From an uncultured Verrucomicrobiota bacterium (GTDB lineage Bacteria; Verrucomicrobiota; Verrucomicrobiia; Opitutales; UBA9783): a stretch of DNA of 64,000 nt. The notes beneath the pieces were generated by a model. It saw nothing but the letters and a program-made list of their open reading frames with translations. It ran no database searches and had not been told where the DNA came from. The stretch is taken from contig CAMHMO010000004.1 in the NCBI GenBank assembly GCA_946186275.1, forward strand, positions 20,616 to 84,615, given 5' to 3'. Made by a program: the position numbers and the translations under genes. The first letter of the stretch is position 1. Each line of letters starts with the position of its first letter. This document shows, piece after piece, positions 13,970 through 63,296 of the stretch.

Positions 13970-16492
13970 TCAGCTTGCCATGCGGATACGTTCCTTCATT
14001 TTGTCCGTATCGTAAATGACTTCCGTATGTTTTCCGACCAACACCAAAGCGGGTAAATTCCGAACGTTGTACTTTCTTGCAAGATCCAAACCCGCCTCTT
14101 CGGAGGTATTCACATAGGTACCCGCGAAATGTTGTTCGACGAGATACGGCTTCATCGATTGGCACTTGATGCAGGTATCGCTGTGGAAAAATAAAACGGA
14201 CGGTTTTTCGGAAGCATTCGAAGCGTTTTTGTTCCCTTCGACGGCATCCTTCGAAAAGAGCATTCCATCGGAAGATGTTTTCCCGCAGACATCGTTTTTG
14301 GATGACCTGTCGGACGTTCCGCAGGTGCACTCCGAAGTTGTACCTCCCGAAGCTTCCGCGCCGCACGAACTTTGCTCATGCCCGCCGCACCCGCAGGCAA
14401 ACGGCGCGCATTCGCCGGGCGGGACAGAATGCGCGACATCGTACGTGACGCGTTGCTTGAATTCCTCCTTTTTACCTTTATTCCAGAATGCGACCGCACG
14501 ATAATACCCCGTAATACGGCTGTAGACTTCCATTTCGCTGCCGCACTTCGGGCAAAAATCCTGTCGCCCCGCCAATCGTCCGTGGTTCTCGCACACCGAA
14601 AACGTCGGGGAAATCGAAACGTACGGAATGCGGAAGTTTTCGACGATTTGGCGCACCAACGTACGGCAGGACTTGGCATCCGGCAACGATTCGCCCAAAA
14701 ATACGTGGAAAACCGTGCCGCCGGTGTACTTGGTTTGCAGACTTTCCTGCTGTTTCAACGCTTCAAAGACGTCTGCCGTATAATCGACCGGCAGGTTGGA
14801 AGAATTCGTATAGTAGGGGTCGACGGTTCCCGATTGAATCATGTTCGGGAATTTTTCCTTGTCGATCTTCGCCAAACGATAAGACGTGCCTTCGGCGGGC
14901 GTGGCTTCCAAATTGTACAAATTGCCGGTTTTTTCCTGAAAATCCTTCAATTTTTCCCGCATGTGCACCAGAACTTCCTCCGTGAAGGCATGCCCTTCGG
15001 GAGTGGCGATGGACTGATGCAGGAAATTGAGACAGCATTCGTGCATGCCGACCAGCCCGATGGTCGAAAAGTGATTGTTGAAGTGCTTCAGGTAGTGCTT
15101 CGTGTAGGGGAATAAACCCTGCTCCATCAGCTTTTCGATGGTGCGCCGCTTGCATTCGAGCGAATCCTTGGCGAGCTCCATCAAATCGTCCAGGCGTCGG
15201 TAAAAATCCTCTTTATTGCGGCTCAAATAGCCGATGCGCGGCATATTGAGGGTCACGACGCCGATGGAACCGGTGAATTCGTCCGCGCCGAACAGCCCGC
15301 CGCCACGCCGCCGCAGTTCGCGCTTATCCAGTTGCAACCGACAGCACATGCTGCGAACATCCGACGGATTGAGGTCGGAATTGACGAAATTTTGGAAGTA
15401 AGGTGTGCCGTATTTGGCGGTCATTTGGAACAGCAAATCCGCGTTTTCGCCGTCCCAATTAAAATCTTTGGTGATGTTGTAGGTCGGAATGGGATAGGCA
15501 AATCCGCGTCCGTCGGCGTCGCCCTCCAGCATGACTTCCAAAAACGCGCGATTGATAAGGTCGATTTCCGCCTGACAATCCTTGTAACACAGATCGCTCT
15601 CTTTACCGCCGATGACCGCTTTTTTATCCGCCAAATCGCTCGGGCAGACCCAATCGAGCGTAATGTTGGTGAACGGCGGTTGCGTTCCCCAGCGGGACGG
15701 CGTGTTGACGCTGAACACAAAACTCTGAATGTGTTGCTTGACTTCGTCGAACGATAGACCGTCGTTTTTCACAAACGGCGCCAGGTAGGTATCGAAGCTC
15801 GACAGCGCCTGCGCACCCGCCCATTCGTTCTGCATCGTCCCGAGGAAGTTAATGATGTGCCAGATGGCGGTCGAAAAATGTTTCGCCGGCTTGGAGTTAA
15901 TCTTCCCGCGAACACCGCCGAAACCCTCTTCCAACAGCTGTCTTAAACTCCATCCGGCGCAATAACCGGAAAACATCGATAAATCGTGCAGGTGAAAATC
16001 GCCGTTCTTGTGGGCGTCGGCAATCTTTTTGTCGTACACCCGATGCAGCCAGTAGTTAGCGGTAATCGCCCCGGCGTTGTGTAAAATCAGTCCGCCGACG
16101 GAGTAATTGATACTGCTGTTTTCGTTGACGCGCCAGTCGCTTTGGTTCAAATAACCGTCCATCGTCTTTTCGATGTCCAGCACCAGAGCTTTGCCTTCGC
16201 GCAGGCGTTCGTGTTGATGACGATACAAAATATAAGCTTTCGCCACGTCGCCAAAATGTTCCTCCATGAGCGTCTGCTCGATAATGTCCTGAATTTCTTC
16301 GACGGCGGGAATGGTGCGGGCGTGATAGCGACGATTAACGGCATCCGTCACCTGATCCGTGAGGCGCAACAGCGTCTCCTTCGAATGCGGGCTTTGCGTC
16401 GCCAAAAACGCCTGTTGCAGGGCGTTGAAAATGCGCTCTTTTTGGAACGGAACAAACGTACCGTCGCGTTTAATAATGGTCTGAATGGGCAT
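13970..16492 (-). CDS. nrdD: Anaerobic (class III) ribonucleoside-triphosphate reductase with a C-terminal Cys-rich linker and thioredoxin-like domain
   Basis: 840 aa. It has an N-terminal ATP-cone (IIKRDGTFVPF), the Zn-ribbon and glycyl-radical region CPKCGSEMEVYSRITGYYRAV, and then about 150 extra residues ending in a thioredoxin-fold-like segment with CIKC. Confidence 0.9.
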   Translation of the reverse strand: MPIQTIIKRDGTFVPFQKERIFNALQQAFLATQSPHSKETLLRLTDQVTDAVNRRYHARTIPAVEEIQDIIEQTLMEEHFGDVAKAYILYRHQHERLREGKALVLDIEKTMDGYLNQSDWRVNENSSINYSVGGLILHNAGAITANYWLHRVYDKKIADAHKNGDFHLHDLSMFSGYCAGWSLRQLLEEGFGGVRGKINSKPAKHFSTAIWHIINFLGTMQNEWAGAQALSSFDTYLAPFVKNDGLSFDEVKQHIQSFVFSVNTPSRWGTQPPFTNITLDWVCPSDLADKKAVIGGKESDLCYKDCQAEIDLINRAFLEVMLEGDADGRGFAYPIPTYNITKDFNWDGENADLLFQMTAKYGTPYFQNFVNSDLNPSDVRSMCCRLQLDKRELRRRGGGLFGADEFTGSIGVVTLNMPRIGYLSRNKEDFYRRLDDLMELAKDSLECKRRTIEKLMEQGLFPYTKHYLKHFNNHFSTIGLVGMHECCLNFLHQSIATPEGHAFTEEVLVHMREKLKDFQEKTGNLYNLEATPAEGTSYRLAKIDKEKFPNMIQSGTVDPYYTNSSNLPVDYTADVFEALKQQESLQTKYTGGTVFHVFLGESLPDAKSCRTLVRQIVENFRIPYVSISPTFSVCENHGRLAGRQDFCPKCGSEMEVYSRITGYYRAVAFWNKGKKEEFKQRVTYDVAHSVPPGECAPFACGCGGHEQSSCGAEASGGTTSECTCGTSDRSSKNDVCGKTSSDGMLFSKDAVEGNKNASNASEKPSVLFFHSDTCIKCQSMKPYLVEQHFAGTYVNTSEEAGLDLARKYNVRNLPALVLVGKHTEVIYDTDKMKERIRMAS

Positions 16493-54540: not shown

Positions 54541-54754
54541 GATATTTTTCGTTGTTTGGTTTCCCGAAACGTTGTTGCGCAAACGGAACCGTTCCGTTGC
54601 CTGCGGTAACATTCGAAGGTATTTCATACATCGGTCGAGATTTAAAAATTTATCAAAAAATAATTTTTTATTTTATACGTATCGACCGTAAGCGATGTTT
54701 TTCACGAAAATAATTGCGACGGCGGCGTTTCTTTGTTCCTTTGGAAGCAAGACG

Positions 54755-59569: not shown

Positions 59570-60619
59570 ATGAACAAGCACATTGAACGATTTTTGGAGC
59601 AGGACGGCGGACGGCTGGCAAAGCACGTCTGCAAGACGATTGCAAAAGAGAAATTACAACTGCCGGGAGCGGATTTTATCGAGCGCGTTTGGATGAACAG
59701 CGACCGTTCGAACGCCGTTCTCAATAACATGGCGCGGTTATATCACCACGGGCGTTTGGGCGGAACGGGTTATTTGTCGATTTTGCCGGTCGACCAGGGT
59801 GTGGAACATTCGGCGGGAGCCAGTTTTGCACCGAACCCTGATTATTTTGACCCGGAAAATTTGGTGCGCTTGGCAATGGAGGGCGGTTGCAACGCGATTG
59901 CGTCCACTTACGGCGTCTTATCAGGCGTTTCACGGAAATATGCGCATAAAATTCCGTTCATTGTTAAACTCAATCACAACGAACTTTTAACATACCCGAA
60001 TAAATTCGACCAAATTTACTTTGCCGACGTGGAGCAGGCGTGGGATATGGGAGCGGTTGCGGTCGGCGCGACGATTTACTTCGGTTCGGAAGAATCGAGC
60101 CGTCAAATCGAGGAAACGGCGGCGGCATTTGCCCGTGCGCACGAATTGGGATTGGTGACGATTTTGTGGTGCTATTTAAGGAATTCGGCATTTAAAGCCG
60201 ATAAAAATTACCACACGAGCGCGGATATGACGGGACAGGCGAACCATCTCGGCGCAACGCTCGGCGCGGATATCGTGAAGCAGAAGTTGCCGACGAACAA
60301 CGGCGGTTTTAAGGCGTTGAATTTCGGGAAAACGCACGAAAAGGTTTATTCGGAACTCACGACCGACCATCCGATCGATCTGACGCGCTATCAGGTGGCG
60401 AACGGCTACATGGGGCGTGTCGGTCTGATTAACTCGGGCGGAGCTTCGGGGAAAGATGATTTTCACGATGCCATCGAAACCGCGCTGATCAATAAGCGTG
60501 CCGGCGGAACGGGGCTCATTCTGGGACGGAAAGCCTTCCAGCGACCGTTCAAAGAAGGCATCGAGTTGCTGCACGCGGTTCAGGACGTCTATTTGGAGCC
60601 GTCGATTACCGTGGCTTAG
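59570..60619 (+). CDS. fbaB: Class I fructose-bisphosphate aldolase, DhnA/FbaB family
   Basis: 349 aa. [29 protein letters not shown] and IVKQKLP are typical of the FbaB/DhnA TIM-barrel aldolases. Confidence 0.8.
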
Positions 60620-60662
60620 AATTTGTTATTCACAGTTTGTTATTGTTTTTCATTGTTATTCG

Positions 60663-60699
60663 CAAAACGGCTGCCGAAAGGCGGTCGTTTTGCGGTTTT
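60663..60699 (+). terminator. Rho-independent terminator after the aldolase gene
   Basis: The hairpin is CAAAACGGCUGCC-GAAA-GGCGGUCGUUUUG (13-bp stem including two G-U pairs, GAAA loop), followed by CGGUUUUA. Confidence 0.5.
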
Positions 60700-60827
60700 A
60701 GAGGGCGTTTTGTCGGATTTTTTAATCGTGCTGGAAACGTTTTAAAGTCACTGTTTTATCCGTTTCAACGATCGTTTTTTAGCGTTGAGATATAGGTCGA
60801 AATCGACGACAATTCCTGTGAGAAGGA

Positions 60828-62579
60828 ATGGTCGAAAAAATGCAACTGAACGGAAGTCGACAAAGGCAGGCAGAACAATTACCGCCGAAAAGGCTTCACG
60901 TTAAAATGGATCATTGCTTCGGGATTGGATATTTGGAGCATACGTTCGATTTTACAAAGGGTAATGTTGTGACCGTCTATGCGCACAACGGTGTCGGCAA
61001 AAGTTCGTTTTGCAAAGCAATGGAGTTGTACGCCGAAGGGCGTACTGAGGAAATTGTGGATGAATTGTACGGAGAAAGACAAAAGGTTCCGACTTTCGGG
61101 TTACTGAAGTATTCAGGATTAACAGATTATTACGGTTCTCAATCTGAATACACCGAACGTTTCATTCCCACTCAAGGCACCATCGAAGTAACGGATGAAG
61201 ACGGTGATGTTGAACCAGAGTGCATAAAAGTATTTGGAAGGAACTTTGACAAAACTTTCTCCGCTGATGGAATGAGAGACGCACTATGGAATGAGGTTGC
61301 TTTTGTGCCGTGTAACGGCATGTCGAATGAATCACATCTTATCAGTTTCGGGACAAAAGTGTTTCAGCAACGGTTTGGAATGCCCGTGTGGTTTCGTACA
61401 TACGAAGAGCGAAAGGGAAACGGTGCCGAGTATAAGCTTTTGTGTGATATTGAAACGACCAAAGATGAATGGGAGCATCCGTTTTCATTTGAGGAATTCC
61501 AAAAAGTCGCAAGCAACGGGGAAAGACGCGCCGTTAACTTTTTGTATTTTTTAACGCAACTGACTGAGTGTGCAATCGAACAGTTGAAGGGCGTTTCAAA
61601 TGCTTCGCTGGATGTGCTGAAAGGCTATGTCATCCTGGATGATATTGCCGATATGTTTGACAGCCGCAATCGGATGGCAATGGTCGAAATTTTAAGAAGT
61701 TTGACGGCAAGAACTCCGAATGTTCGTTGGATCTTTTTTTCTCACAACTATGACGTCTATCGTTATTTATCGAATCGTCTTTGTGTAGCGGAAGGTAATC
61801 GTTTTATTGCAACGAAGCGAACGGAAGGTTCCGAAAATATCGTTACTTTATCGCGTGATTATTATGCGGGCGAGGGCGATCCGTTTCGGAATTGGGCAAA
61901 AAATATCGATAACAAGAAAAAATTCCTTGCGTTAATTCCCTTTATGCGACAGTTGGTTTTATTCACACGAGATGAAGGTTGGAGTACGTCGGACAGTAAA
62001 GACAATCACGCAAAGAACAAGGAAATTTTAACGCATTTGTTGCATTATTTCCCCAACGAGAAAGAAGGAAAAGGTACGGAAGCGATTACCGTCGAAGAAA
62101 TTGTCGGGATCTTTAAAAACTACATCGATTTTGATGAAAGCAAAATAAATTTCAGGGATCGAACCGTATTTGATTTGTTGTTGGATACGTGCAATACGAT
62201 TGTCGAAACGAAAGAAGAAGCGCAGGATAACGAGAAAGTACTGCGGGTAACCGAAATTGATTTGGTCAATAAGGTTGTTTTGGCAATTGGGATCCGTTTA
62301 TTGGCGGAAAAATATATGTTGGAGAGAGGTGCAACAGCCGGCGGGAACTCCAACCGTACGTATGCGTTATACGATTCTTTTGTGAAGAAATACGGAAATA
62401 ACAATCTTCAACCAGTAGATATGCTTTTTAAATTAAGCTGTTGTGTACCTTTTCTCCCCGATTTTATCCACATGAATTCCTTTCACTACGAACCGTTGAT
62501 GGATTTGGAGGGAACGGAGTTGGCAGGGTACTACCGATATTTCAAAACATTAACAGAGGCAGAGAACGAGCATGCATAA
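60828..62579 (+). CDS. PrrC/RloC-like (AAA_13-type) ABC ATPase with a putative C-terminal nuclease region
   Basis: 583 aa. It has Walker A YAHNGVGKSS, the signature-like SNGERRAVNFLYFL, Walker B YVILDDIADMFDSRN and the H-loop FFSHNYDVY. The C-terminus has IRLLAEKYM (R-x3-E) and FIHMNSFHYEP. Confidence 0.7.
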   Translation: MVEKMQLNGSRQRQAEQLPPKRLHVKMDHCFGIGYLEHTFDFTKGNVVTVYAHNGVGKSSFCKAMELYAEGRTEEIVDELYGERQKVPTFGLLKYSGLTDYYGSQSEYTERFIPTQGTIEVTDEDGDVEPECIKVFGRNFDKTFSADGMRDALWNEVAFVPCNGMSNESHLISFGTKVFQQRFGMPVWFRTYEERKGNGAEYKLLCDIETTKDEWEHPFSFEEFQKVASNGERRAVNFLYFLTQLTECAIEQLKGVSNASLDVLKGYVILDDIADMFDSRNRMAMVEILRSLTARTPNVRWIFFSHNYDVYRYLSNRLCVAEGNRFIATKRTEGSENIVTLSRDYYAGEGDPFRNWAKNIDNKKKFLALIPFMRQLVLFTRDEGWSTSDSKDNHAKNKEILTHLLHYFPNEKEGKGTEAITVEEIVGIFKNYIDFDESKINFRDRTVFDLLLDTCNTIVETKEEAQDNEKVLRVTEIDLVNKVVLAIGIRLLAEKYMLERGATAGGNSNRTYALYDSFVKKYGNNNLQPVDMLFKLSCCVPFLPDFIHMNSFHYEPLMDLEGTELAGYYRYFKTLTEAENEHA

Positions 62580-62702
62580 GCAGAGGTGCACTGTAAAGTA
62601 CGATTGGAAAAACAGAAATATCCCGGATGTCCTGCCTGTATGTGTAATTTCATTATAACAGTAAGGTTGCTCTTTACCGGCACAAATCACCATGCCCCAT
62701 CT

Positions 62703-62778
62703 CTGGCGGGGAAAGCGGGACTCGAACCCGCGACCTACGGTTTAGAAAACCGCAGCTCTATCCGCTGAGCTACTTCCC
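62703..62778 (-). tRNA. tRNA-Arg (anticodon UCU), CCA encoded
   Basis: I folded the reverse complement by hand. The acceptor stem is GGGGAAG/UUUCCCC. The D arm is GCUC..GAGC. The anticodon arm is GCGGU-UUUCUAA-ACCGU. The T arm is GCGGG-UUCGAGU-CCCGC, followed by G and CCA. Confidence 0.85.
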
Positions 62779-62821
62779 CGCAATTTCAACACCGATCTCA
62801 AAAAAACGATATCGGCAAAAA

Positions 62822-62896
62822 CTGGTGCCGGGGAGTGGATTTGAACCACCGACCAAAGGCTTATGAGTCCTCTGCTCTGCCGCTGAGCTACCCCGG
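62822..62896 (-). tRNA. tRNA with CAU anticodon (elongator Met, or Ile2 if lysidine-modified), CCA encoded
   Basis: The reverse complement is GCCGGGGUAGCUCAGCGGCAGAGCAGAGGACUCAUAAGCCUUUGGUCGGUGGUUCAAAUCCACUCCCCGGCACCA. G1-C72 is paired and there is no GGG/CCC in the anticodon stem, so it is not an initiator. Confidence 0.8.
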
Positions 62897-63296
62897 CGGG
62901 CAACAGCTTTATTATTTCTTACGTCGTTGAAAGGTCAAGAGAAATAGGGGGTTATTTGGCGGATACTATGTGTCGGCGGGAAGCAGATGTTGCGTGCATA
63001 TTTTGGGAAAGATCCGAAATTTTAAACAAACGGAGCGCTTATGTAGACAGATATGCTCCGAGTTAGAGGGGTTAAAAAGAAGTTGAAGCACTTATAGAAC
63101 GATGATAACGGATTTTAAGTCGAGGAGGATGTGCCGAAACCGCCGTTCGCCTGTTCGGCTCCCTTTTGTTACGAAATGCGCCGTTCCGTTGAACGGGCGA
63201 TGTTCAACAGTCGCCTTCCTTCAGCATTTTTTGAGCATCTCCCGTGGTAACTACCTGCAAGTATAGCGTACTTATGTTTCCCGAAACCCGTTGTGT

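Follow-up and report, generated by a model that had tools for sequence, protein, structure and literature searches.

PrrC, the EcoprrI-linked tRNA-Lys anticodon nuclease of E. coli, and RloC, a wobble-nucleotide-excising and zinc-responsive tRNase, are among the described systems closest to the gene considered here, an open reading frame (ORF) on the plus strand, at positions 60828-62579, of a 64-kb stretch of DNA from an uncultured Verrucomicrobiota bacterium (contig CAMHMO010000004.1; the whole stretch is called the window in what follows). A further point of comparison is given by the PDC systems, a set of 145 'phage defence candidates' gathered through guilt-by-embedding in known defence systems (PADLOC-DB v2; Payne et al. 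2024 preprint, doi 10.1101/2024.01.29.577857). The first-pass annotation of this DNA had taken the gene for a solitary ABC ATPase of the PrrC/RloC kind, immediately upstream of two tRNA genes and carrying the catalytic triad of PrrC near its C-terminus. Our analysis points, with a rough probability of 0.5, to a single-polypeptide defence-type ABC ATPase, a shortened member of family PDC-S46 distantly related to PrrC and RloC, which most likely works as an ATP-gated abortive-infection effector and possibly as an RNase, an activity that we infer.

The ORF encodes 583 amino acids (aa) and is clearly a gene, since it has 293 homologues at E<=1e-3 (8,000 candidates scored), a confident AlphaFold2 model (mean per-residue confidence, pLDDT, 83; predicted TM-score, pTM, 0.83) and a ratio of nonsynonymous to synonymous substitution rates (dN/dS) of 0.28-0.40. 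Its first 20 codons are unconserved; the first predicted beta-strand, residues 22-30 (pLDDT 96), begins upstream of the Met27 start called in some relatives, and the start is therefore 60828 or 60840 and not Met27. The protein belongs to PDC-S46, as the PADLOC hidden Markov model of this family (PDLC05023) matches it in two stretches with E=2.6e-74 and 249 bits, the best of them joining residues 178-575 to model positions 364-718 of 719, and the same model matches all 31 of the 31 aligned relatives, down to 1e-271. NCBIfam returned generic ABC matches only. Pfam AAA_13 (PF13166) stayed sub-threshold, with 29.2 bits against a cut-off of 36 (residues 226-346, model positions 498-614 of 713), so that the suggested AAA_13-type character of the ATPase finds its support in the DD-type Walker B, the SxD D-loop and the profile alignment to PrrC, but not in the Pfam gathering threshold. 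The ATPase motif set is intact, and the six peptides on which the first-pass annotation relied are all encoded by the ORF, at residues 51-60, 229-242, 267-281, 303-311, 489-497 and 546-556. The features of the gene are the following.

60828..62579, + strand: coding sequence of the 583-aa ABC ATPase with a helical C-terminal domain (C-domain), short-clade PDC-S46; an alternative start at 60840 is possible
60978..61007, + strand: Walker A or P-loop, YAHNGVGKSS, residues 51-60 with K58, a canonical GxGKS
61068..61187, + strand: hypervariable segment, residues 81-120, after the helix that follows Walker A; low model confidence
61512..61553, + strand: ABC signature region, SNGERRAVNFLYFL, residues 229-242 (S229, G231, E232), in the partial Pfam AAA_13 match 226-346
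61626..61760, + strand: Walker B (ILDD, D271/D272), D-loop (MFD, D278) and H-loop (SHN, H306; FFSHNYDVY, residues 303-311), with significant homology to the PrrC profile
61875..62051, + strand: first part of the C-domain, GDPFRNW (F353, W356), helix IPFMRQLVLF (R374, L378) and LTHLLH (H406), from hhalign and column statistics
62292..62507, + strand: second invariant cluster of the C-domain, IRLLAEKYM (residues 489-497; R490, E494), then FIHMNSFHYEPLMD (H548, N550, F552, E555, P556, D559)

The peptide YVILDDIADMFDSRN makes up residues 267-281, within the Walker B/D-loop stretch, and FIHMNSFHYEP residues 546-556. Family invariants are kept throughout, namely Y51, N54, G55, K58, S60, E232, D271, D272, D275, D278, H306 and N307 in the N-terminal part and R374, H406, R490, E494, P544, H548, N550, F552, E555, P556 and D559 in the C-domain. 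Residues 81-120, which share 24-30% identity among close relatives otherwise 75-95% identical, may be a sensor surface or an unconstrained loop.

The relation to PrrC was analysed with a set of metagenome genes fetched by back-translating the LARP peptide KYGDSNKSFSY, published for PrrC (PMC1950546), to which diverse genes from IMG/VR were added; the fetched proteins are named 'anticodon nuclease' in public sources, and the catalytic triad of PrrC (R320, E324 and H356; PMC1484252) is invariant in the 70 PrrCs. Aligned with hhalign, the 120-sequence family and the 70-PrrC profile match with Prob 93% and E=3.3e-7 (family 265-405, PrrC 190-326), and with a narrower PrrC profile the values are Prob 96% and E=3e-9. 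The alignment begins at Walker B, takes in the H-loop and the terminal strands, and goes on to the LARP-equivalent loop and the LLRNLYEK helix, so that the first part of the C-domain aligns with both the LARP region and the catalytic helix of PrrC. In the family, the LARP-equivalent loop reads NPFxxW, F353 being paired with the essential PrrC F292, and LLRNLYEK pairs with IPFVRNLIEY (IPFMRQLVLF in the window protein) at a posterior of 0.8-0.9. That the ATPase is of the PrrC kind is thus borne out by the DD Walker B, the SxD D-loop and the hhalign values (Prob 93-96%, E=3e-7 to 3e-9), and at the level of profiles this homology is real but distant, extending up to the first helix of the C-domain.

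A distinct picture emerges for the catalytic residues. PrrC R320/E324 pair with R374/L378 and not with R490/E494, so that the PrrC-equivalent Arg is R374 and the PrrC-equivalent Glu is missing in the clade of short proteins to which the window protein belongs; PrrC H356 pairs with no conserved His in the family. When block 344-470 of the C-domain is compared alone with PrrC its score is 17.8, while column shuffles have a mean of 11.05 +/- 2.44 and 7 of 240 of them reach the observed value; homology of this block is suggestive but not conclusive. Block 471-583, which holds R490, E494 and H548, gave no PrrC signal, 17 of 60 shuffles reaching its score. A first PrrC profile made of LARP-containing sequences only gave no significant C-domain signal, which appeared only with the diverse 70-sequence profile. 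A comparison of the two blocks with each other was negative for an internal duplication (8 of 60 shuffles reach the observed score). R490, E494 and H548 are indeed conserved as had been claimed, being invariant across the 120 relatives, but their identification with the PrrC triad finds no support in the profile alignment: the second cluster (R490/E494...H548...D559) is, judging from the alignments, an invariant cluster specific to the PDC-S46 family, and its relation to PrrC is unsupported. Also, the PADLOC PrrC model does not match the 583-aa protein at E<=0.1 and in some long relatives matches the ATPase part only, up to model position 248 of 372, and the PrrC box (PrrC residues 68-94) was not matched by the local alignment, which begins at Walker B; the position of the box falls within the hypervariable segment. 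In the course of this comparison, 41 viral or prophage contigs from IMG/VR (L138-L178) were found to encode PrrC homologues with 29-71% identity to a Marinobacter PrrC, so that anticodon nucleases of the PrrC type are no rarity on predicted viral contigs.

RloC was compared through its published pattern only, R-x3-E-x36-52-H with a Ser often preceding the His and a CxxC hook, and a protein search with PrrC returned close orthologues only, with no RloC among them. The window protein has R490-x3-E494-x53-H548, a spacing one residue outside the RloC range (45-71 in the family, with a mode of 53), and Ile, not Ser, before H548. No CxxC zinc hook is found in it, nor anywhere in the relatives save for 4 of the 120, and neither the window protein nor the short clade has a coiled-coil insert as in RloC.

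An exhaustive search with the C-domain profile retrieved 1,263 clusters at 50% identity, nearly all of them proteins of ~720-740 aa that end in this domain. Relatives are encoded in at least 514 GTDB species genomes from Bacteroidota, Pseudomonadota, Bacillota, Patescibacteria, Spirochaetota, Verrucomicrobiota, Thermotogota and other phyla, as well as on 27 plasmids and 13 IMG/VR contigs, and a further one is carried by one record of a phage collection, a 13.9-kb sequence without annotation that comes from human faecal samples. Among 30 genome loci in which two ORFs were scanned on each side, the commonest neighbours are restriction-modification (R-M) components (N6_Mtase 7, ResIII 6, Methylase_S 3, and in addition methyltransferases and restriction enzymes of type I and type III), and no single partner gene recurs. 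In three individual loci the long-form gene is solitary and lies in an integrase/recombinase island, in a defence island with KwaB, GmrSD, HipA, nSTAND and SocA as neighbours, and beside a hydrogenase operon. A 725-aa member on the Rhizobium anhuiense plasmid pRA_T24_2 (L137, 4753-6930) is named 'phage infection protein' in RefSeq, the only functional-sounding name encountered in the family.

The window protein falls in a rare, short Opitutales clade of 12 clusters with 504-592 aa (a 400-aa entry, P0008, looks like a fragment), all originating from metagenomes and one Opitutales metagenome-assembled genome (MAG). Members of this clade do not have the ~200-aa insert which in long members separates the two ATPase lobes, that of Walker A and that of the signature. 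Their P-loop also differs: NGVGKSS occurs only in the 12 short-clade members, and 108 of the 120 relatives have NGxMKTS, with Met for the second Walker A Gly. Position 378, which pairs with PrrC E324, is Glu or Asp in 101 of the 120 relatives, Leu in the window protein and non-acidic throughout the short clade; the active site, if there is one, must therefore rely on the second cluster. As a defence candidate, PDC-S46 had been listed before. What appears to be new is its profile link to the PrrC catalytic helix, the arrangement of the invariant C-domain residues in two parts, the short clade with its canonical P-loop and without insert or Glu, and the turnover of alleles at a fixed locus, described next.

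The gene order peroxiredoxin, UvrD-like helicase, FliO-like, aldolase, ABC gene is kept in three related Opitutales contigs (L001, L002 and L003), for which the identities to the window are as follows.

Window against L001: neighbour identity 75-99%, ABC protein 85%
Window against L002: neighbour identity 82-98%, ABC protein 47%
Window against L003: neighbour identity 44-87%, ABC protein 32%

Against the L002 allele the synonymous divergence (dS) of the ABC gene is 1.46 and that of the flanking genes 0.22-0.56, which points to replacement by a deeply diverged allele. The dN/dS of neighbouring genes is 0.02-0.27, lower than that of the ABC gene, and the GC content of the latter, at 42.1%, is low compared with that of the window (48.8%) and of the flanking genes (50-53%). 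The immediate surroundings of the gene contain three further features.

60661..60694, + strand: inverted repeat with 15-nt arms and a 4-nt loop, then a T-rich tract, upstream of the ABC gene
62704-62779, - strand: tRNA-Arg(tct), found by ARAGORN
62823-62897, - strand: tRNA-Met(cat), found by ARAGORN

Upstream lies a gene for a class-I DeoC-type aldolase (59570-60619), and the hairpin at 60661-60694 is likely its terminator and the 5' limit of a transcription unit of the ABC gene's own, so that the reported position between an aldolase terminator and the tRNA genes is correct; a weak promoter-like site at 60785-60813 is of a kind found at chance frequency in the region. ARAGORN also corroborates the tRNA-Arg(UCU)/tRNA(CAU) pair beside the gene. 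This pair follows 124 nt past the stop codon, its 3' end facing the gene. The wording 'immediately upstream of two tRNA genes' holds for this distance but not for orientation: the tRNAs are on the minus strand and thus convergent with the ABC gene, not co-oriented, and the gene is not transcriptionally upstream of them. In the window, L001 and L002 the ABC gene comes before the pair; in L003 (4810-8876, Opitutales MAG GCA_017958565.1, counterpart of 59570-63989 in the window) the pair lies between aldolase and ABC gene, and the gene therefore occurs on either side of the same pair within a conserved aldolase-MlaD interval. In a survey of 45 family loci a tRNA gene occurred within 1 kb in 2 and anywhere in an 18-kb stretch in 11, approximately as tRNA density predicts, and tRNA identities vary among loci. 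We have thus rejected the tRNA adjacency as functional, since 2 of 45 loci is about chance, and the meaning earlier attached to it is further undermined by the exchanged side in the syntenic L003. The position next to two tRNA genes looks incidental, the neighbourhood being best explained by an insertion hot spot and not by a functional link, and we treat the two tRNAs as landmarks of the locus which would have no established part in the candidate system.

In respect to mechanism, we propose that the ATPase would bind ATP or GTP and dimerise head-to-tail, as an SMC/Rad50-like head. Indeed, Foldseek searches of the full-length model against the PDB returned PtuA (Septu, retron) and the heads of SMC, Rad50, RecN and cohesin (E~1e-7, TM ~0.3), which indicates a generic SMC/Rad50-type ABC head. 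A phage-derived cue, perhaps read by residues 81-120, would alter the nucleotide cycle, the altered cycle would release the all-helical C-terminal effector (residues ~345-583), and this could act on host or phage nucleic acid and so abort infection. The effector would most likely be a metal-independent RNase built from the invariant R374, H406, R490, E494 and H548; this proposal draws on the PrrC homology that reaches the catalytic Arg, on the invariant Arg, His and Glu residues, on weak hints of HEPN and on the architecture. We infer in this way the defence function, the ATP gating, the RNase chemistry and any substrate.

A number of observations weigh against this proposal. The set of putative catalytic residues comes from alignment and not from spatial placement, and the equivalent of PrrC E324 is non-acidic in the whole short clade. 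The C-domain modelled alone (residues 344-583) is all-helical with pLDDT 81, and gave no significant Foldseek match in the PDB or BFVD; the PDB, searched by sequence with the whole protein and with the profile of the C-domain, yielded no relevant hit, and Pfam on 30 C-domains returned scattered noise only. An unrelated fold, which would have contradicted the PrrC/RloC assignment, was likewise not matched significantly. The only matches of the C-domain above noise are HepT HEPN toxins (7bxo, 6m6w and 5yep; probability 0.25-0.72, TM 0.45-0.52), with an E>=0.86 that is not significant. The HEPN signature is Rx4-6H at the end of helix 3 (PMC3710099), and neither H406 (KEILTHLLH) nor H548 (FLPDFIH) has an Arg 4-6 residues before it, nor does the family consensus; this signature is therefore absent. 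A search of the literature and a supplement did not find 'PDC-S46', and the family stands as a candidate only. Finally, the gene keeps a conserved chromosomal position among housekeeping genes, with neither an integrase nor an att-like repeat present, which one would not usually expect of a mobile defence gene.

Some of these observations would be accommodated if the C-domain were non-catalytic, a sensor, oligomerisation or partner-binding module, with the protein working through its ATPase, as a DNA/RNA clamp like SMC/Rad50, or by switching on an effector that belongs to the host or is unlinked. Neither a nuclease fold nor a nuclease motif is detected, Rx4-6H included, many defence ABC ATPases (PtuA, LmuB, AriA) use separate effectors, and it is to ATPases of this type that the whole protein comes closest in structure. 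However, the family is overwhelmingly solitary, with no conserved partner in the 30 surveyed loci or in the other loci examined, and invariant Arg, Glu, His, Asn and Asp residues, in a domain that otherwise evolves fast, are more to be expected at an active site than at an interface, for which reasons we consider a non-catalytic C-domain unlikely. In a bolder version of the nuclease proposal, PDC-S46 would be a third, unrecognised branch of the PrrC/RloC ATPase-gated RNases with a bipartite nuclease domain, formed by a PrrC-like R374/E378 helix and the R490/E494/H548 block. The short form, having lost a coiled-coil-like insert and the PrrC-type Glu and regained a canonical P-loop, would on this view have been rewired, so as to fire through the second block or to serve as a regulator, with rapidly turning-over alleles at a hot spot beside the tRNA pair; we hold this picture as tentative, and doubtful in its entirety.

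A non-defence role is quite improbable. The short Opitutales form could be a domesticated or decaying derivative kept at a fixed locus for a housekeeping or regulatory function: it occupies the same aldolase-MlaD position in four related genomes, it has lost the ~200-aa insert and Glu 378 and has a changed P-loop, and there are no mobile-element genes or att repeats, since no integrase or att-like repeat was seen at the locus and a search with the tRNA 3'-ends at the other edge of the gene gave short chance repeats only. But all other family invariants are retained, and the dN/dS exceeds that of the neighbours, while the low GC content against the flanks, the allele replacement (dS to the L002 allele exceeds that of the flanks by a factor of 3-6), the hypervariable segment and the shifting tRNA side mark a hot-spot defence gene and not a housekeeping gene. 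Weakest, and very unlikely, is a bona fide PrrC/RloC-type anticodon nuclease whose R490/E494/H548 triad cleaves a specific tRNA anticodon loop when unleashed, a reading which the order of ABC ATPase and helical C-domain, the significant ATPase homology to PrrC, the invariance of the three residues and the likeness of R-x3-E-K with a His 53 residues on to the RloC R-x3-E-x36-52-H would fit, but which is opposed by the failure of the PADLOC PrrC model (ATPase part only in relatives), the silence of block 471-583 and the pairing of R320/E324 with R374/L378, the lack of PrrC box, hsd linkage, coiled coil and CxxC, the Ile before the His with an E-to-H spacing just beyond the RloC range, and the chance-level tRNA adjacency.

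As for the rest of the window, most of its genes are housekeeping ones, e.g. gyrase, NrdD, TGT and GAPDH. The gene had been described as solitary and without an R-M system, and this agrees with the PADLOC families listed for the 64-kb window, among which there is no R-M gene: in the first 25 of the 149 families matched by its 53 ORFs no R-M model appears, bar 'mad2'. One ORF matches this methyltransferase model with E=1e-22, and probably encodes a housekeeping methyltransferase.

A second ABC ATPase is located some distance upstream. At 150 nt from tRNA-Leu(caa) (49561-49647) begins a gene for a 549-aa AAA_15 ABC ATPase (49797-51446), which matches PADLOC AriA (PARIS) end to end with E=2e-68, and GajA and OLD more weakly; no AriB/TOPRIM partner of it was identified. 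The two ORFs that follow, at 51458-53590 (- strand, 710 aa) and 53734-54627 (- strand, 297 aa), have no PADLOC match, the former having no PDB match either. The stretch 49561-54627 has a low GC fraction, 0.40-0.45, and L002 carries other ORFs after the same tRNA-Leu, so this looks like a second variable island. The earlier suggestion of two ATPase-nuclease-like candidates beside tRNA genes is therefore sound in that the 49797 gene encodes a defence-type ABC ATPase, AriA/GajA/OLD-like, after tRNA-Leu, but the tRNA adjacency is at chance level for PDC-S46. Exact-sequence look-ups of the 583-aa protein and of the 49797 protein found no record. In L002, an MntA-like nucleotidyltransferase and a HepT-like HEPN toxin form a pair at 14526-15234, ~3 kb beyond the ABC gene on its downstream side; the window has no such pair.

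Should the PDC-S46 proteins prove to be RNases gated by nucleotides, the PrrC/RloC paradigm of anticodon nucleases would gain a broad third lineage, present in at least 514 species from most bacterial phyla, and the long and short forms would be a natural pair in which to ask about the roles of the ATPase insert and of the two Arg/Glu/His clusters. If the family is inactive or non-defensive, it would be a useful caution on candidates that come from guilt-by-embedding alone. The Opitutales locus offers, in compact form, a case of allele turnover in a defence-type gene that stays at a fixed chromosomal site, with no mobile element visible.

Compared with the known systems, the protein has in common with the HEPN toxins (HepT of MntA-HepT) an all-helical domain with conserved Arg and His, and an Arg followed by a polar residue (RN/RQ), but it is without Rx4-6H and its C-domain is about twice the size of a HEPN domain. 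It resembles RloC in being a single gene, usually not R-M-linked, that encodes a large ABC ATPase and a helical C-terminal domain with, at the level of motifs, R-x3-E...His, and the long PDC-S46 form, like RloC, has a large insert between the ATPase lobes. With PrrC it shares the N-terminal ABC ATPase with its DD Walker B, SxD D-loop and linchpin His, and the helical C-domain, the short clade being likewise without coiled coil; it differs in an extra C-terminal block of ~140 aa with its own invariant Arg, Glu and His, and in a gene that is flanked by the aldolase, tRNAs and MlaD instead of being embedded in a type Ic hsd locus. The 583-aa protein is neither a true PrrC nor a true RloC. With PDC-S46, whose members have ~720-750 aa against 583 here and lie in islands or beside R-M genes and not at a fixed chromosomal locus, it shares the ATPase motifs, the C-domain with every one of its invariant residues, and the organisation as a solitary gene.

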